DNA of 55,235 nt from a virus: IMG/VR virus record IMGVR_UViG_3300015203_000003, positions 1-55,235 of that record, one strand, 5' to 3'. Below the pieces are notes generated by a model. That model had not been told where the DNA came from. It saw nothing but the letters and a program-made list of their open reading frames with translations, and did not search any database. Positions 16,431 to 23,134 of this stretch are shown here, in pieces. The stretch's first letter is position 1. Every line of letters begins with the position of its first letter. The position numbers were made by a program, and so were the translations under genes.

Positions 16431-17821
16431 GCTATCACGATTTCATTAACGCAAAATCTCAGATCGGAGGCATGGCTGGATTTGAGCCGCTATGGATGCC
16501 GAAGGAGGCGTTCGACTTTCAACGACACCTTGCGACTTGGAACCTAATGAAAGGAAAATCTGCCGACTTCGCGGATTGCGGCATGGGGAAAACCTTCATC
16601 GAGTTAATCTTCGCGCAAAACGTGGTGATGAAAACAAACGGACGGGTGCTGATTTTGACGCCGCTCGCTGTTAGCTACCAGACGGAGCGCGAGGCGGAAA
16701 AGTTTGGCATCGAGGCCAAGGTATGCCGGGACGGAAAACTGGCATCAAAAATCGTGATTACCAATTACGAGCGGTTGCACTATTTCAACGCGGAGGATTT
16801 TGAAGGGGTGGTGTGCGACGAGTCCTCGGCCATTAAAAATTTCGATGGGCAAACCACGGCGGCGATCACGGAGTTTATGCGCCGGATTAAATACCGCCTT
16901 CTCGGGACGGCCACCGCCGCGCCGAACGACTACATTGAACTCGGAACGTCCAGCGAGGCGCTAGGGGAAATGGGATACATGGATATGCTGGGGATGTTCT
17001 TCAAGAACGCGCAGAACTCCCTCCATCCCTCCATGCGAGGGGCTGGCGCACGAGTGAAAAGTTTGGAGGCAACGGCCAAATTCCGATTCCGTGGGCACGC
17101 CGAGCAACAGTTCTGGCGCTGGGTATGCTCGTGGGCGAGGGCGTGCCGGAAGCCATCAGACCTGGGTTTCGACGATGGGAAATTCAAACTGCCAGACCTT
17201 AAAACGCGCCAGCATATCGTCAGTTCCAGAAGCAACCCGGATGGATTTCTATTCCCACTTCCGGCTCATGGATTGAAGGAGCAGGGCGACGAATTACGGC
17301 GCACAGTCAACGAGAGGTGTGAAATGGTGGCGGAACTCGTCCAGTCGCATCAGGGGCCGTCAATCGCGTGGTGCAACCGGAACGAGGAGGGCGACCTGCT
17401 CCAAAAACTGATACCTGGGGCCGCGCAGGTTGCCGGGAAGGATTCAGACGAAAAGAAAGAGGAACTGCTCACAGCCTTCGCTCAAGGGAAAATCGGGACG
17501 CTAATCAGCAAGCCGGTTATTGCGGGCCTTGGCTTAAATTTTCAAGTGTGCGCCCACCAAACGTATTTCCCATCTCACAGCTACGAGCAGTGGCATCAGT
17601 GCGTGCGCCGGTCGTGGAGGTTTGGCCAGAAGCGCGAGGTGACGATTGATGTTGTGACGACAGAGGGGCAGGCCGATGTCCTTTCGAACCTAATGCGAAA
17701 GCAGCGCCAGGCCGAAGAAATGTTCACCAAACTCGTGTCACTTATGGGAAATGAACTGCGGATAACTCAGGAAAACCGATTCACAAAAACTCAGCAACTA
17801 CCCTCTTTTTTATGCCAATAA
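16427..17821 (+). CDS. SNF2-family helicase
   Basis: Motif I DCGMGKT, motif II VVCDESS, motif III LGTATAAPN, and C-terminal helicase motifs (GLGLNFQ, RSWRFGQ). Confidence 0.8.
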   Translation: MSYHDFINAKSQIGGMAGFEPLWMPKEAFDFQRHLATWNLMKGKSADFADCGMGKTFIELIFAQNVVMKTNGRVLILTPLAVSYQTEREAEKFGIEAKVCRDGKLASKIVITNYERLHYFNAEDFEGVVCDESSAIKNFDGQTTAAITEFMRRIKYRLLGTATAAPNDYIELGTSSEALGEMGYMDMLGMFFKNAQNSLHPSMRGAGARVKSLEATAKFRFRGHAEQQFWRWVCSWARACRKPSDLGFDDGKFKLPDLKTRQHIVSSRSNPDGFLFPLPAHGLKEQGDELRRTVNERCEMVAELVQSHQGPSIAWCNRNEEGDLLQKLIPGAAQVAGKDSDEKKEELLTAFAQGKIGTLISKPVIAGLGLNFQVCAHQTYFPSHSYEQWHQCVRRSWRFGQKREVTIDVVTTEGQADVLSNLMRKQRQAEEMFTKLVSLMGNELRITQENRFTKTQQLPSFLCQ

Positions 17822-18810
17822 TCAGCCAAGAAATTCAGCCTCAATACGCCCTATACAACGGGGATTGCATTGAAGTCATGGGCGACCTGCCATCCGCTTC
17901 GGTTGACCTTTCAATTTACAGTCCTCCGTTTTGTGGGCTCTATAATTATTCGTCCAGCGAACGCGACCTTTCCAACTGCGGGAGCTACCCTCAATTTTTC
18001 AAGCATTACAAATTCGTGGTGGACGAGATTAACCGCATAACGAAGCCCGGTAGGATTACGGCGGTGCATTGTATGGATGTTCCCGGGACCGGCAATGGTG
18101 ACACGGCAAAGATGGGATGCGGAGCGAATGCCGGAACCGGACTAATCGACTTCCCTGGTGACATCATCCGGTTGCACGAGCAATGCGGATTTCAGTTCAT
18201 GGCACGCCGCGCCATCTGGAAGGAGCCGCTCGGCGTCCGGCTCCGCACCATGGCGAAAGGATTGGCCCACGCTCAAATCGTGGAGGACTCGACGCTCTGC
18301 GACGTTGCGGGGGCGGATTACCTTCTCACGTTCCGAAAAAAGGGTGTGAACGCGGTCCCGGTATCTCATGAGGTTGGGCTCTTGAATTATGCCGGAGAGC
18401 GCGTCATGCCTCACGAGTTGCAGCAATGGAAGGGGCACAAGGGGAAGCAGACAGAGAACCGTTACAGCCATTGGATTTGGAGGCAATATGCTTCCTCATT
18501 TTGGGATGATATTCGAATCGACAACGTGCTCGAATATGAGGAGGCGCGGGATCCTGATGACGAGAAGCACTGCCACCCGCTGCAACTCGACGTGATCGAG
18601 CGCGCGGTAGTGCTCTGGTCGAATCCTGGAGAAATCGTATGGACCCCATTTCTAGGCGTTGGAAGCGAGGCATACGGAGCGGTTGTCAACGGAAGAAAGG
18701 CCATCGGCGCAGAGTTAAAAACCTCGTACTACAGTCAATCCGTGAAAAACATGCGTAAGGCGGTGGAGAATTACAAACCGGAGCAATCCGAACTCACTGG
18801 CGTGTTATGA
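17812..18810 (+). CDS. DNA methyltransferase, beta-class N4-C/N6-A type
   Basis: Catalytic motif DLSIYSPPF lies near the N-terminus and AdoMet motif FLGVGSE near the C-terminus. Also contains HCHPLQLDVIER. Confidence 0.8.
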   Translation: MPIISQEIQPQYALYNGDCIEVMGDLPSASVDLSIYSPPFCGLYNYSSSERDLSNCGSYPQFFKHYKFVVDEINRITKPGRITAVHCMDVPGTGNGDTAKMGCGANAGTGLIDFPGDIIRLHEQCGFQFMARRAIWKEPLGVRLRTMAKGLAHAQIVEDSTLCDVAGADYLLTFRKKGVNAVPVSHEVGLLNYAGERVMPHELQQWKGHKGKQTENRYSHWIWRQYASSFWDDIRIDNVLEYEEARDPDDEKHCHPLQLDVIERAVVLWSNPGEIVWTPFLGVGSEAYGAVVNGRKAIGAELKTSYYSQSVKNMRKAVENYKPEQSELTGVL

Positions 18811-18917
18811 AAACCCCGAGCCCCAGCACCACGCACTGCGCCCGCAACGAGCACCAGACGCTCTGCGGCCACGAGGTAGCGACTGGAACCCGGATCGTGG
18901 GTGGTGGGCTACTTTGA
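18807..18917 (+). pseudogene. 5' fragment of a small Zn-ribbon phage gene, truncated by transposon insertion
   Basis: ATG 18807 overlaps the methyltransferase stop (ATGA). The frame runs into the transposon inverted repeat and stops at 18915-18917. The remainder of the gene is at 22087..22149. Confidence 0.7.
18892..18899. repeat. Target-site duplication GGATCGTG, left copy
   Basis: Identical 8-mer at 22079..22086, directly outside the inverted repeats. Confidence 0.8.
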
Positions 18918-18919
18918 AA
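18900..18919. repeat. Terminal inverted repeat GGTGGTGGGCTACTTTGAAA
   Basis: Matches the reverse complement of 22059..22078 (GGTAGTGGGCTACTTTGAAA) at 19 of 20 positions. The GGT(G/A)nTG start is IS1-like. The transposase stop codon lies within it. Confidence 0.8.
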
Positions 18920-19751
18920 TTGTACCGGCACAGAGAATCCCGACCATCTCTTCAAGGCTCCAAACGTGCTGTGCGACACCGGCTTCCATCGCGGGGGTGA
19001 CGCGGAGGGTCTGATGGATGCGGCAAAAATTGTAATGCATGAAGTAAATCGCCAGCGCGTGCTCGTGGTTTTCCAGCTTCTTTGAAAAGGCGTTCGTCAA
19101 CCTCGTGAACCGGCGCATTCCCATCCTCATGCTGAGGTTCTGGCGTTCGGCAAAGCTCGTGGAGATGTGCTTGCGATCCGGCTTGCCGGTCATAGTGGTT
19201 TTCCTAGCCCCCATGCAGATAGCGGGGCTGTAACGCGTTTGTGGGCCGGTTGGCAGATTGCCGTAGAGTTTCACGAGCCGCCCGTAATCAATGTCATTCC
19301 CGAACACATCATCCACGGCGGAGATGTAGGCGTGGTGTCCGTCCGTTGTCAGTTGGACGCGATGGGCAAGACGCCCGGCTAGATCGTGCATGAAGTGGTA
19401 CGCGGAATCGGCATTGCGCGGGCCAACAAACCAGCAAGGGACAAGCTTCGTGTCCGCGTCGATTGCCGTCCAGGTCCAGGCATCACCCCATCCCATTCCT
19501 TTTTGCTCTGTGGTGGCGTTCTTCTCCTTCGCTCCCACAAACGCCCAAATTTCATCGGCTTGCAGGCGCTTGCATTTGAGGTCGCGAAAAACGCGATCCT
19601 GATAGGCGGAACAAGCCGCGCCCATCTCTACCAGGAGACGGGAAACAGTTTTCTTGGCAAACCCGGTCATGCGGCAGGTAGCGCGGAGGCTGTTTCCCTC
19701 GACCATGCACGCAACGATCTTGGCGCGTTCTTCGGTGCTCAACTTGTTCAT
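18909..19751 (-). CDS. IS1-family DDE transposase (single-ORF type)
   Basis: N-terminal HTH (EERAKIVACMVEGNSLRATCRMTGFAKKTVSRLL). WTWTAIDADTKL, QLTTDGHHAY and STSFAERQNLSMRMGMRRFTRLTNAFSKKLENH...RIHQTLRVTPAM match IS1-type transposases from memory. Confidence 0.75.
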   Translation of the reverse strand: MNKLSTEERAKIVACMVEGNSLRATCRMTGFAKKTVSRLLVEMGAACSAYQDRVFRDLKCKRLQADEIWAFVGAKEKNATTEQKGMGWGDAWTWTAIDADTKLVPCWFVGPRNADSAYHFMHDLAGRLAHRVQLTTDGHHAYISAVDDVFGNDIDYGRLVKLYGNLPTGPQTRYSPAICMGARKTTMTGKPDRKHISTSFAERQNLSMRMGMRRFTRLTNAFSKKLENHEHALAIYFMHYNFCRIHQTLRVTPAMEAGVAQHVWSLEEMVGILCAGTISK

Positions 19752-19760
19752 GGGTCTAAT

Positions 19761-19780
19761 ATGCTTAGGCGTCTAAGCAT
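19761..19780. promoter_or_regulatory. Near-perfect 20-bp palindrome ATGCTTAGGCGTCTAAGCAT between the transposase and Panacea genes
   Basis: 8-bp arms ATGCTTAG/CTAAGCAT around GCGT, within the 103-nt divergent intergenic region. Confidence 0.4.
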
Positions 19781-19854
19781 TGTCAACGGGATTTTAAAAT
19801 ATTTGCGTACTGGTACGGTTCTTGGTAAGCTCTACTGGAGAGACAACTGTTCAA

Positions 19855-20400
19855 ATGAACATTAAATTAACCGGATTTACCGATAAACTGGAGGAACTTG
19901 TCCTGTACATCATCGCGATGTCGGAACGAGACCCACGGTTTATGTGCACCAAATTGAACAAGCTGGTTTGGGCTGCCGATTTCGCGTGTTTCTGCGAAAC
20001 CGGCAGCACGATCACTGGCGCAAATTATCAGCGCCAGAAATTCGGACCCGTTCCCAAGGCTATGCCAATCATTCTGGGGCGACTTGAGCGGGAGGGGCGA
20101 ATTGAGATGCAGGAGGTGCAGATTGGAACGAAAGTTGGCATTCGGCCAGTCGCCAAGGCCGCGCCCGACATTTCAGCGTTCTCTCAGCGCCAATTGATGC
20201 TCGCCAGCAAGATGGTTGCAGACAACTTCGGCAAGACAGGAACAGAGTTGAGCGAGGAGAGTCATAAAAAATTGGCGTGGAAGGTTCTGGATAATGGCGA
20301 CGAAATTCCGTTTGCTTCGTGGTTCGTTACCGCTCGGAACCCCACCCCTGCCGAAAGAGCTATAGGGTTGGAACTGGAAGCCGCTCTGGAGCAGAACTAA
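19855..20400 (+). CDS. Panacea-domain (DUF4065, SocA/GepA-like) antitoxin-type protein
   Basis: ATG 19855 (the track start at 19822 is TTG). TKLNKLVWAADFACFCETGSTITGANYQRQKFGPVP fits the DUF4065 core as I remember it. Confidence 0.6.
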   Translation: MNIKLTGFTDKLEELVLYIIAMSERDPRFMCTKLNKLVWAADFACFCETGSTITGANYQRQKFGPVPKAMPIILGRLEREGRIEMQEVQIGTKVGIRPVAKAAPDISAFSQRQLMLASKMVADNFGKTGTELSEESHKKLAWKVLDNGDEIPFASWFVTARNPTPAERAIGLELEAALEQN

Positions 20401-21284
20401 ATATCCTCCATCGTAATCTCGCGGGACGCTTCAGGGACCGCAGGGAACTCAGTATGGGGTGCTTGATCGGTATCCTTGAACGCCGCCTTCGCGGCCTTGA
20501 CGGCTTTCTGGGCCCGCTCAAATTGTCGCTTTGAGAACTGCACGAAGTCAACCAAGGCATCAAAATCGTCTGGCGTAAGTTCTTGTCCGGTAAAGACAAG
20601 TGTCGCCTGATTTGCGCCGAGCGGGATGGTGTATTGAGCGAGCATCTTTTGGCCTTGCGGGGCTACGTGAGCGTGTGGCGTGTAATCTGACAATGGATCG
20701 ACGAGGATAAATGGCGGATTCTGCGTCGATTTTGGTTCATTGGCTGGAGGCGGTTGCTCCTGTTGCTGTTTTGGCGTTTCATCCCTGCCTTCATTTTGTA
20801 CCACAGGCGTGCTGCTGGAATCAAGTTTAGCGAAGGTTTTATTTGCCGTATAGGCTTTGGCAACCCGCTTTGCCCTGTCGAGATTGAACCCATTTTGCAC
20901 TAAGTGACTTACGAGAACGTCCTCAGAGCAGTCATTATAGCCATTATACAGGTCCTCAAAGACTTTTGGAGCCAGAGCAGCTTCTCGAATCGCAGTGAGT
21001 GATTGATCGGTACTGGTTGGGTGCAGTATCCGCAAGGAAAGCGAAGTGACCGTGAGCATGCCCTTGGCCCGGTCAATCAGTCCATATTGCGAGAACCCGG
21101 CCAGCAGCGTGAGCGAGCTGCCCGTCAGCCCTGAATACCCCATTGCCCTGCAAGCCACCTCCGGCTTCACAGGTGAGCGCCCTATTTGAGCGTGGAGCTT
21201 TTTGACCCTAGAAATCGCCTCCTCAAGTTCCACCACTGGAGCCCTGGGGCTTCTGTCTTGATTGGCTATATCGTCGTCATTCAT
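20397..21284 (-). CDS. Hypothetical 295-aa protein: winged-helix-like N-terminus, low-complexity linker, unknown C-terminal domain
   Basis: First ATG is at 21284 (the track start at 21401 is GTG). The stop codon overlaps the stop of the convergent Panacea gene. No family recognised. Confidence 0.55.
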   Translation of the reverse strand: MNDDDIANQDRSPRAPVVELEEAISRVKKLHAQIGRSPVKPEVACRAMGYSGLTGSSLTLLAGFSQYGLIDRAKGMLTVTSLSLRILHPTSTDQSLTAIREAALAPKVFEDLYNGYNDCSEDVLVSHLVQNGFNLDRAKRVAKAYTANKTFAKLDSSSTPVVQNEGRDETPKQQQEQPPPANEPKSTQNPPFILVDPLSDYTPHAHVAPQGQKMLAQYTIPLGANQATLVFTGQELTPDDFDALVDFVQFSKRQFERAQKAVKAAKAAFKDTDQAPHTEFPAVPEASREITMEDI

Positions 21285-21445
21285 AAAGCCAACCGTATAA
21301 CGGATTACACGATACCGCAAGCGGCGAATAGAATAAACCGTATCGTGTCCTGAAAATAATGCTTGTGCTCGCCGGAGCTTAGGGTGTATGCCATGTGGCA
21401 CGCTGAGAAATTGGCTCCAAAAAGTTCCGCTATAAACCAGAAATC

Positions 21446-21727
21446 ATGCCCGCCGCACCAAAACGCCCTATGATGAGGGATGTCCGCTCCGAGCTATCGG
21501 TGGACGCCGATCTTGAGCGTATTTATGGGAGTGCGCAGCTTGCGGACGAATGCATGAGGGGCCTAATGACGCTCCTGTCCAAAGATCCAGAATGCGGGAA
21601 GGAAAGTAGCAAAAAGGTCCGGCTGATAGATTCTCAGGGGTCTGGAATCTGGAAGGTCCTCACTTTTTGGTACACTTTCGATGACGAGTATGTGACGATC
21701 CTGAAGGTGGTGGCGAGCGATGGTTAG
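21446..21727 (+). CDS. ParE/RelE-superfamily-like small protein (toxin-like)
   Basis: 93 aa. The C-terminal WKVLTFWYTFDDEYVTILKVVASDG resembles the ParE/RelE C-terminal beta-strands. A TATAAA hexamer ends 9 nt upstream of the ATG. Confidence 0.35.
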   Translation: MPAAPKRPMMRDVRSELSVDADLERIYGSAQLADECMRGLMTLLSKDPECGKESSKKVRLIDSQGSGIWKVLTFWYTFDDEYVTILKVVASDG

Positions 21728-21739
21728 GATTAGGTGACT

Positions 21740-22003
21740 TCAGGATTTCCGCCACCGTTTAGCCGCTCCCTGCTGCGCGATTTCCTTCCGTCTCTCCGGA
21801 GTGAGGTTAGCTGCCCGCATTTTCCCGCCCTTGCTGCCGCCAAGCTTGCCTAGGATGCTGGCGGCCTGACTTCGGAGCCGCTGCTCTTCATCCGTGATCC
21901 TGGGCGTCTCAGGGAGTTTCGCGGGGGGCGAGCCGGTGATCTGCTGGCCGATCCGAAAGGCGGCTTGAACCTCATCCTCTCTCTTGCTTGGGCGTGTAGG
22001 CAT
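21740..22003 (-). CDS. Small basic protein with a KGGKxRAAxLTPERRxEIAxxxAxxRW tail
   Basis: 87-aa ORF with an ATG start, convergent with 21446..21727. The C-terminal motif recurs in uncharacterised prophage proteins as far as I recall. Confidence 0.45.
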   Translation of the reverse strand: MPTRPSKREDEVQAAFRIGQQITGSPPAKLPETPRITDEEQRLRSQAASILGKLGGSKGGKMRAANLTPERRKEIAQQGAAKRWRKS

Positions 22004-22058
22004 GCCTCACAATGCACCCCGCTGGACACCTCGGCAATCCGATTCTAAACTGTACCGG

Positions 22059-22078
22059 TTTCAAAGTAGCCCACTACC
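22059..22078. repeat. Terminal inverted repeat, right copy
   Basis: TTTCAAAGTAGCCCACTACC is the reverse complement of GGTAGTGGGCTACTTTGAAA. Confidence 0.8.
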
Positions 22079-22086
22079 GGATCGTG
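22079..22086. repeat. Target-site duplication GGATCGTG, right copy
   Basis: Identical to 18892..18899. Confidence 0.8.
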
Positions 22087-22149
22087 CAACAGGAGCCAAC
22101 GTGCCGCCACTGCGCGGAACTTCTGCGTAAGCGGCGCAAACCATTATGA
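22087..22149 (+). pseudogene. 3' fragment of the interrupted Zn-ribbon gene
   Basis: Reads QQEPTCRHCAELLRKRRKPL-stop, in frame with 18807..18899. Its TGA overlaps ATG 22146 of the next phage gene. Confidence 0.7.
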
Positions 22150-22382
22150 GCTACGAATCACGACGAGACGAACAGCGGCAATACGAGTCAGACGTTTTTT
22201 ACGAAGTCTGGTGGCATGGCGGCAATCCAGACCGCATCAATGACGACCGAGTGAGTGACCGATATTATAACGGGGATACGCCTGAAGATGCCGCAATGGG
22301 TGAACTCCGGCGCCAGCACCAGCACGGGCGGCAGGAAGAACAAGAGCAGGAGCAGATGGAAAACGACGGGATTGAACCATGA
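22146..22382 (+). CDS. Hypothetical acidic protein
   Basis: 78 aa with a Glu/Gln-rich tail. ATGA overlap downstream. Confidence 0.55.
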   Translation: MSYESRRDEQRQYESDVFYEVWWHGGNPDRINDDRVSDRYYNGDTPEDAAMGELRRQHQHGRQEEQEQEQMENDGIEP

Positions 22383-23134
22383 CCACACCAAACGAACACG
22401 CCAGAAAAGCTGCGATGTGCATTCTTCGCTGGAAACACGACCATTCCGAATTGCGGATCAGTCGAATTATACAGCAAGCCCTCACCGCCCAGAAGGCCGA
22501 AACACTGGACGCGATCCTGGTTGAGTTGGCAGGACGCGGAGTGCCGACGCCGGAGAAGACCTACAAGAGCGATGGTGGATTGCCCCAAGCGTTGTCAGAC
22601 ATTCGAAGGGCTATTACCGACCGTAACCCTCTACTCAGAGAAGGTGCTGACATGCTGGATTTTACAGCTAACACCATGGAAGAAGCGCAAGCGCGGATCA
22701 AGGAACTGGAGGCCGAATCTCAATACAACTTCGACGCGGCAAACGCCCTAGCAGCAGTGCTGGCGGATCACAAGGAGCAATACGCACAGCTTCAACAGGA
22801 AAACTCCCGCCAAAAGACCGAGTACGCCACCCTCTACGAGCGGTTCCAAGAAAACGAAAGGCTTCGCCGCCAGATGCAACGGCAGGGCGAAGAATTGAGT
22901 GACCAATGCGACAAGCACGTCGCCACCATCATCAAGGGGATGCGGGAGGCGCTGGAGGAAGTAGAGCAGTGCCACCAAGAGGCGGACGAAAACGGATGCA
23001 CCTGTTACTCTGATCCGGATGGGCCTTGCCGTCATTGCAATCCCAAGATGGCCGCTAGCGAAATTACGCGAAAGGCCCTCTCCTTGTGGCAACCGCTCCC
23101 GACTCCCCCGAAGCCATGCGAAGAGAGATCGTGA
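22379..23134 (+). CDS. Coiled-coil hypothetical protein
   Basis: 251 aa with a long charged helical region and a C-terminal Cys pair (CTC...CRHC). Confidence 0.55.
   Translation: MTTPNEHARKAAMCILRWKHDHSELRISRIIQQALTAQKAETLDAILVELAGRGVPTPEKTYKSDGGLPQALSDIRRAITDRNPLLREGADMLDFTANTMEEAQARIKELEAESQYNFDAANALAAVLADHKEQYAQLQQENSRQKTEYATLYERFQENERLRRQMQRQGEELSDQCDKHVATIIKGMREALEEVEQCHQEADENGCTCYSDPDGPCRHCNPKMAASEITRKALSLWQPLPTPPKPCEERS

Follow-up and report, generated by a model that had tools for sequence, protein, structure and literature searches.

A cargo-carrying IS1-family element in the genome of an uncultivated tailed phage, probably inserted within a 51-codon gene

The window analysed here, i.e., the whole of IMG/VR record IMGVR_UViG_3300015203_000003 (55,235 bp), is the genome of a tailed phage, as judged by the presence of genes for a terminase large subunit, a portal and a DnaC-like helicase loader. 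The record is classed as 100% complete with direct terminal repeats, and the contig closes on itself through an 88-bp end repeat, giving a unique genome of 55,147 bp. Between a DNA methyltransferase gene and a 78-codon gene of this phage lies a single copy of a 3179-bp, cargo-carrying insertion element of the IS1 family, on either side of which are the two parts of a small open reading frame (ORF). The features that define this arrangement, in window coordinates, are:

17812-18810, plus strand: DNA methyltransferase gene, 332 aa (Pfam N6_N4_Mtase, E 5.7e-14; PHROG 67)
18807-18899, plus strand: 5′ part of the split ORF, codons 1-31, by translation (codon score of this half 0.258)
18807-18917, plus strand: present, shortened ORF, 36 aa, the left inverted repeat supplying its last five residues (GGGLL) and its stop
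18892-18899: left copy of the target-site duplication, 8 bp, GGATCGTG (8-bp duplications are typical of the element family)
18900-22078, minus strand (that of the transposase): IS1-family cargo-carrying insertion element, 3179 bp, recognised by its inverted repeats, duplication, transposase and relatives
18900-18919: inverted repeat at the transposase end (GGTGGTGGGCTACTTTGAAA), which contains the transposase stop; related elements end in the same motif
18909-19751, minus strand: transposase, 280 aa, full length (Pfam DDE_Tnp_IS1; NCBIfam transpos_IS1; named homologues)
22012-22149, plus strand: hybrid ORF, 45 codons, whose ATG is within the element; it crosses the inverted repeat, shares the frame of the 3′ remnant and finishes at the same ATGA
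22059-22078: inverted repeat at the small-gene end, located by repeat search
22079-22086: right copy of the target-site duplication, 8 bp, GGATCGTG, an exact match to the left copy
22087-22149, plus strand: 3′ part of the split ORF, codons 32-51 and TGA, by translation
22146-22382, plus strand: next phage gene, 78 aa, an ORFan (codon score 0.361; no Shine-Dalgarno motif)

The terminal inverted repeats are 20 nt long and match at 19 of 20 positions (95% complementary, one base different), so that the ends of the element read GGTGGTG... and GGTAGTG...; IS1-family inverted repeats reportedly start GGnnnTG. Formally, the longest direct repeat flanking the element is 10 nt (CCGGATCGTG). A 10-bp duplication was nevertheless rejected, because the extra CC at the right copy is the end of the inverted repeat (...CCCACTACC); this leading CC belongs to the inverted repeat, and the true duplication is therefore 8 bp. 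When bacterial-genome loci were collected by means of the transposase, the shared terminal motif allowed the ends of 11 complete elements to be placed. Exact 8-bp duplications flank all 11 (2069-3045 bp in size), so the boundaries of the element in the window can be regarded as secure. A copy of 3370 bp with the same ends is present on a Mesorhizobium loti plasmid. We also considered, and rejected, a composite of two elements: the small gene, the cargo and the transposase form one unit in the relatives. The 3.2-kb insert is one transposable unit of a widespread, cargo-carrying, IS1-like family.

In one of the related elements, from a deltaproteobacterial assembly (L147), the duplicated sequence is GGATCATG (flank CGGGATCATG), close to the GGATCGTG of the window (flank CCGGATCGTG). 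This likeness may be coincidence, the other nine target sites being without obvious consensus.

That the junctions are an assembly artefact, i.e., that the assembler fused an element of host DNA to the phage contig, is extremely improbable. The record comes from a metagenome assembly, and searches of viral and metagenome contigs found no other sequence to confirm the junctions. However, the element lies between two exact copies of an 8-bp phage sequence, and each of the 11 bona fide relatives is likewise flanked by an exact duplication of this length; a chimera would not yield a target-site duplication. Moreover, the phage reading frame continues across the removed element, and the self-closure of the contig through its end repeat also speaks against such an error.

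A first-pass annotation had proposed that removal of the element plus one 8-bp repeat restores a 51-codon ORF coupled to both phage neighbours, and this proved correct, the boundaries on which it relies (18900-22078) being supported by the duplications of the relatives. Joining 18807-18899 to 22087-22149 yields 156 nt, a length divisible by 3, which encode 51 codons (MKTPS...RKPL) followed by TGA, with no internal stop. As had been stated, the ATG at 18807 overlaps the TGA stop of the methyltransferase gene (18808-18810) in an ATGA context (TTATGAAA, 18805-18812), while the TGA that ends the rebuilt frame (22147-22149) shares bases with the ATG at 22146 that starts the 78-codon gene, again in an ATGA context (TTATGAGC, 22144-22151). 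The present frame does run into the left inverted repeat, with its stop at 18915-18917.

The rebuilt ORF is one link in a chain of genes with overlapping starts and stops, i.e., helicase, methyltransferase, split ORF, 78-codon gene and 251-codon gene, the stop of the 78-codon gene overlapping ATG 22379 of the 251-aa ORFan gene that follows it. Ten of the 36 long plus-strand ORFs of the phage end in ATGA. The genes that start at ATGA junctions, including the 78-codon gene, are without Shine-Dalgarno motifs, and they therefore probably depend on the coupled ORF upstream.

We consider it likely that the rebuilt 51-codon ORF was a translated gene. Its codon log-likelihood score is 0.115, the best of the six frames and a value at the 15th percentile of true 51-codon windows; only 1.6% of wrong-frame 51-codon windows score as high, as do 1.9% of 104 spurious ORFs (40-70 codons, nested in long genes). 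The alternative is that the element inserted into a non-coding spacer of 148 nt and that the rebuilt frame is open by chance, which we regard as unlikely. On this alternative, a codon score matched by only about 2% of spurious ORFs of the same size would have to be fortuitous, as would the position of both ends exactly on ATGA overlaps, which is how this phage chains genes without a Shine-Dalgarno motif. In addition, the 78-codon gene, having no ribosome-binding site of its own, would be stranded unless an upstream ORF were coupled to it. Among the eight methyltransferase loci that are closest, three (L003, L005 and L008) also have a small ORF, unrelated in sequence, that shares 4 nt with the end of the methyltransferase gene.

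Several observations weigh on the other side, or leave the gene without independent confirmation. When the length was fixed, 39% of dinucleotide-preserving shuffles kept the rebuilt frame open, so openness alone is weak evidence, and the last 20 codons, i.e., the 3′ half, have a slightly negative codon score (-0.107). A search of 5.8 billion proteins with the rebuilt 51-aa protein matched only its own truncated form, and the protein was not found in metagenome contigs either. The empty site, sought as a 29-mer in viral contigs and as a 24-mer in metagenome contigs, gave zero matches. The methyltransferase has 566 relatives in viral contigs, but tblastn searches of the 80 closest of these loci with the 51-aa and 78-aa proteins returned noise only; the loci carry unrelated small genes downstream of the methyltransferase, and the region is hypervariable. 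The arrangement of the cysteines and a Pfam match below its cut-off, both described below, likewise lend the spacer some support.

The 251-aa protein, used as an anchor for closer relatives, had zero relatives among the same 5.8 billion proteins and in viral contigs. Because this adjacent gene is also an ORFan, we take the missing homologues of the rebuilt ORF to reflect missing sequenced relatives rather than non-coding status. The search for an intact 51-aa ORF in relatives, which had been put forward as a check, found none and neither confirmed nor refuted the proposal, there being no close relative in the collections. Thus, of the annotation's statement that the insertion site was a gene, the open, coupled frame with coding-like codon usage stands, and no relative was found to carry the ORF intact.

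The further suggestion that the rebuilt protein is a zinc ribbon was not supported. Its cysteines are at residues 11, 20, 37 and 40, a spacing of C-x8-C ... C-x2-C with one CxxC knuckle only, and not CxxC ... CxxC; the insertion, between residues 31 and 32, separates C11 and C20 from C37 and C40. That the phage has many other small zinc-ribbon proteins, as had been supposed, is an overstatement: just three other small, Cys-rich, plus-strand ORFs with coding-like scores were found. The sole Pfam match of the rebuilt ORF is to zf-HC3 (PF16827), at 17.2 bits (E 0.006), the cut-off being 25. It covers residues 12-48, on both sides of the junction, and the two halves of the ORF give no such match when searched separately. 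As controls, another small ORF gave a clearly spurious Pfam match at E 0.004, and sub-threshold zf-HC3 matches occurred in 7 of 14 control genomes. After these controls we treat the match as noise-level, suggestive at most, and the case from the predicted protein that it might bind zinc is weak.

The transposase of the element matches Pfam DDE_Tnp_IS1 (PF03400) with 29.9 bits, above the cut-off of 24.1, and NCBIfam transpos_IS1 with 53.5 bits (E 2.9e-14). Because the latter score is below the equivalog cut-off of 100, the predicted protein is classed as a divergent member of the IS1 family. Homologues with 52-83% identity carry the name "IS1 family transposase" (NCBI, JGI). Residues D66, D137 and E202 are invariant in an alignment of ten transposase sequences, and the protein looks intact, since it aligns end to end with its relatives. 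A single uninterrupted ORF spans the helix-turn-helix and DDE regions, with no InsA/InsB arrangement and no programmed -1 frameshift. The element therefore lacks the frameshift of classical IS1 and fits the single-ORF subgroups instead. Its closest known counterparts are the single-ORF and passenger-carrying IS1 subgroups catalogued in ISfinder, for which Siguier et al. (2015) reportedly used the subgroup name ISMhu11.

In other respects the element resembles the IS1 family as described in ISfinder, i.e., in its DDE transposase with an N-terminal helix-turn-helix, in ends of the form GGTnGTG and in the location of the transposase stop inside an inverted repeat. Its 8-bp target duplication falls within the 8-9 bp of the family. 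By contrast, it is 3.2 kb long, compared with 768 bp for IS1, and unlike IS1 it has, at its other end, a gene for a conserved basic protein of 70-90 aa (KGG...RW tail), with a variable cargo slot separating this gene from that of the transposase.

The best promoter-like site in the region is at 19758-19786 on the minus strand (TTGACA-17-CATATT, 10/12), ending 6 nt before the transposase ATG at 19751, and would give a leaderless or near-leaderless transposase mRNA. A scan of the region for promoters and terminators found a site count no higher than in shuffles, and for this reason we make no claim for an outward promoter-like site at 22023-22051.

Read in the direction of the transposase, the order of the element is inverted repeat, 87-aa gene (22003-21740), cargo slot, transposase (19751-18909) and inverted repeat. 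The genes other than the transposase are:

19822-20400, plus strand: SocA/Panacea-domain cargo gene, 192 aa from the first TTG (Pfam PF13274, E 2.5e-11; PHROG 1281)
20397-21401, minus strand: cargo gene, up to 334 aa (no Pfam, NCBIfam, PHROG or PADLOC match)
21446-21727, plus strand: cargo gene, 93 aa (no Pfam, NCBIfam, PHROG or PADLOC match)
21740-22003, minus strand: small basic gene, 87 aa, with a KGGK...RW tail, conserved in the element family; it lies upstream of the transposase and has the same orientation

Family members at L107:3784-5852 (in a Chthoniobacteraceae assembly), L108:685-3219 (in a Planctomycetota assembly), L187:296-3665 and eight further loci range in size from 2.07 to 3.37 kb, and each has an 8-bp duplication. 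The small basic gene occupies the same position in L107 (3858-4124; 82% identical) and L108 (759-1037; 67% identical); another copy is at L187:575-784, and weaker copies are present in nine more loci. The copy on the Mesorhizobium plasmid is annotated as 'histone H1'. The tail KGG..RA..LT.E.R.EIA...A..RW is conserved, and all cargo-carrying members of this IS1-like family have the small protein next to one of their inverted repeats. By analogy with InsA for IS1, it may be a DNA-binding accessory or regulator of the family.

The small basic gene is common to the relatives but the cargo is not, and varies by copy:

L107: 168-aa protein, membrane/GYF-like by eye only
L108: 331-aa protein, protease-like by eye only
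two alphaproteobacterial plasmids: helix-turn-helix protein and an ORF of 155-160 aa
window: Panacea/SocA-domain gene, ORF of up to 334 aa and 93-aa ORF

In a set of 80 genome loci, none has the three non-conserved cargo genes in common with the window. When the cargo was compared with PADLOC, NCBIfam and PHROG, nothing matched except the Panacea gene and, in the small basic protein, the tail, and no cargo gene fits a known defence model in PADLOC. The Panacea-domain gene, for which an ATG at 19855 is an alternative possible start, shares the PF13274 match with Panacea (SocA/DUF4065) antitoxin-domain proteins. Unlike Panacea systems, it is solo, with no co-oriented partner or toxin gene adjacent to it, and this gene of predicted function rides as transposon cargo inside a phage. 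It converges on the cargo ORF of up to 334 aa, with an overlap of 4 nt; the nearest Atlas clusters of the latter are unnamed hypothetical proteins. The C-terminus of the 93-aa ORF looks ParE/RelE-like, by eye only.

A derivative of 842 bp without a transposase, bounded by the same terminal motif and flanked by an 8-bp duplication (GTCGCAGG), occurs in another viral contig at L082:12257-13098 (IMGVR_UViG_3300047576_000022). The terminal 20-mer occurs six times in the 13.9-kb stretch that contains it, an indication of several non-autonomous copies.

The explanation that we judge probable for the locus as a whole is that a cargo-carrying IS1-family element transposed into the genome of a tailed phage and split a 51-codon ORFan gene. 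On this explanation, an element with an intact DDE transposase would have inserted into the complete phage genome through an 8-bp staggered cut, as is usual for its family, at GGATCGTG inside the gene, which would have lain between the methyltransferase and 78-codon genes in the run of overlapping stop and start codons. The small protein would thereby have been cut to 36 residues, with its first two cysteines parted from the last two, and the operon upstream would now be 3.2 kb away from the coupled genes that follow. Transcripts extending from this operon into the element would be antisense to the transposase gene, and the 78-codon gene would lose its natural upstream partner. The 45-codon hybrid ORF, starting at ATG 22012, could restore reinitiation at the ATGA junction, although its frame would match that of the remnant by accident with a likelihood of roughly one in three.

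The insertion had been called recent on the direct evidence of the sequence. A perfect duplication, a one-base difference between the inverted repeats, an intact transposase and undamaged ORF halves all fit a recent event, and are compatible with that statement, but the insertion is undatable, because the 11 relatives also keep perfect duplications and because a frame of 156 nt decays slowly. A near-identical donor of the element was not found in the collections, the best transposase match being 83% identical, and it is for want of such a copy that both the recency of the insertion and the host of the phage are only inferred. A recent insertion is plausible.

The element was not carried by any related phage, and among 50,697 cultured phage records there was only one distant relative of the transposase (31.6% identity). 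The insertion adds 6.13% to a genome of 51,960 bp, and the packaging tolerance of phages is 105-106% (PMC3429520). Most phages are without insertion sequences, which are generally counter-selected in phages; this has been attributed to their gene-dense genomes and to capsids that tolerate about 5-6% of extra DNA (PMC3429520). The increase in genome size and the rarity of such elements in phages make long-term persistence of the element less likely, the event itself still being undated.

These observations bear on a further alternative, i.e., that the insertion is not recent and that the element has been stably kept as a useful cargo module (e.g., of anti-defence or toxin-antitoxin-like genes), the split gene being dispensable. 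We give this some, but low, likelihood. It would be in keeping with the Panacea-domain gene and three other ORFs that the element brings, with an element-bearing genome abundant enough to be assembled as a closed 55-kb contig, with the persistence of perfect duplications in all relatives, which deprives them of dating value, and with a hybrid ORF that ends on the same ATGA and could keep the downstream genes translated. However, the cargo includes no gene fitting a known defence model, related phages are without the element, the added 6.1% places the genome at the 105-106% packaging tolerance (PMC3429520), and insertion sequences are generally counter-selected in phages (PMC3429520). A more elaborate proposal, in which IS1-family cargo elements act as shuttles of toxin-antitoxin-like or anti-defence genes into phages and the copy in the window was kept since its cargo helps, with downstream expression rescued by the hybrid ORF, is quite unlikely.

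Returning to the reading that we prefer, insertion of the element into a small phage gene, the closest transposases (82-83% identity) are in assemblies of Chthoniobacteraceae and other Verrucomicrobiota from peat and soil, and the closest copies of the small basic gene are likewise in Chthoniobacteraceae/Verrucomicrobiota assemblies from peat and soil. Judging from these similarities, the host of the phage is probably a member of the Verrucomicrobiota, and the element thus provides a Verrucomicrobiota/Chthoniobacteraceae host lead for an orphan phage.

Viable phage genomes with insertion sequences have been documented, as with P1 c1-100 IS1::Tn9 mod749::IS5 (PMC9025707). As in that case, an insertion sequence appears to disrupt a non-essential phage gene in a genome that is still maintained. 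Unlike P1, the phage described here is uncultivated, probably of Verrucomicrobiota, and known from its sequence alone; its element carries four extra genes, and the disrupted gene is a 51-codon ORFan. The locus thus offers a cleanly delimited natural insertion in an uncultivated phage that added four non-transposase genes and interrupted a translationally coupled gene chain. It illustrates a way in which phages may acquire cargo genes via transposons, and it lends indirect support to a 51-codon ORFan being a real gene. It leaves current understanding unchanged, the rebuilding of genes by removal of insertion sequences being routine and the case one of ordinary gene disruption.

Farther along the same chain of genes, the 251-aa protein (its gene lying within 22146-23134 of the window, plus strand) is coiled-coil-like and has a C-terminal CTC...CRHC motif.

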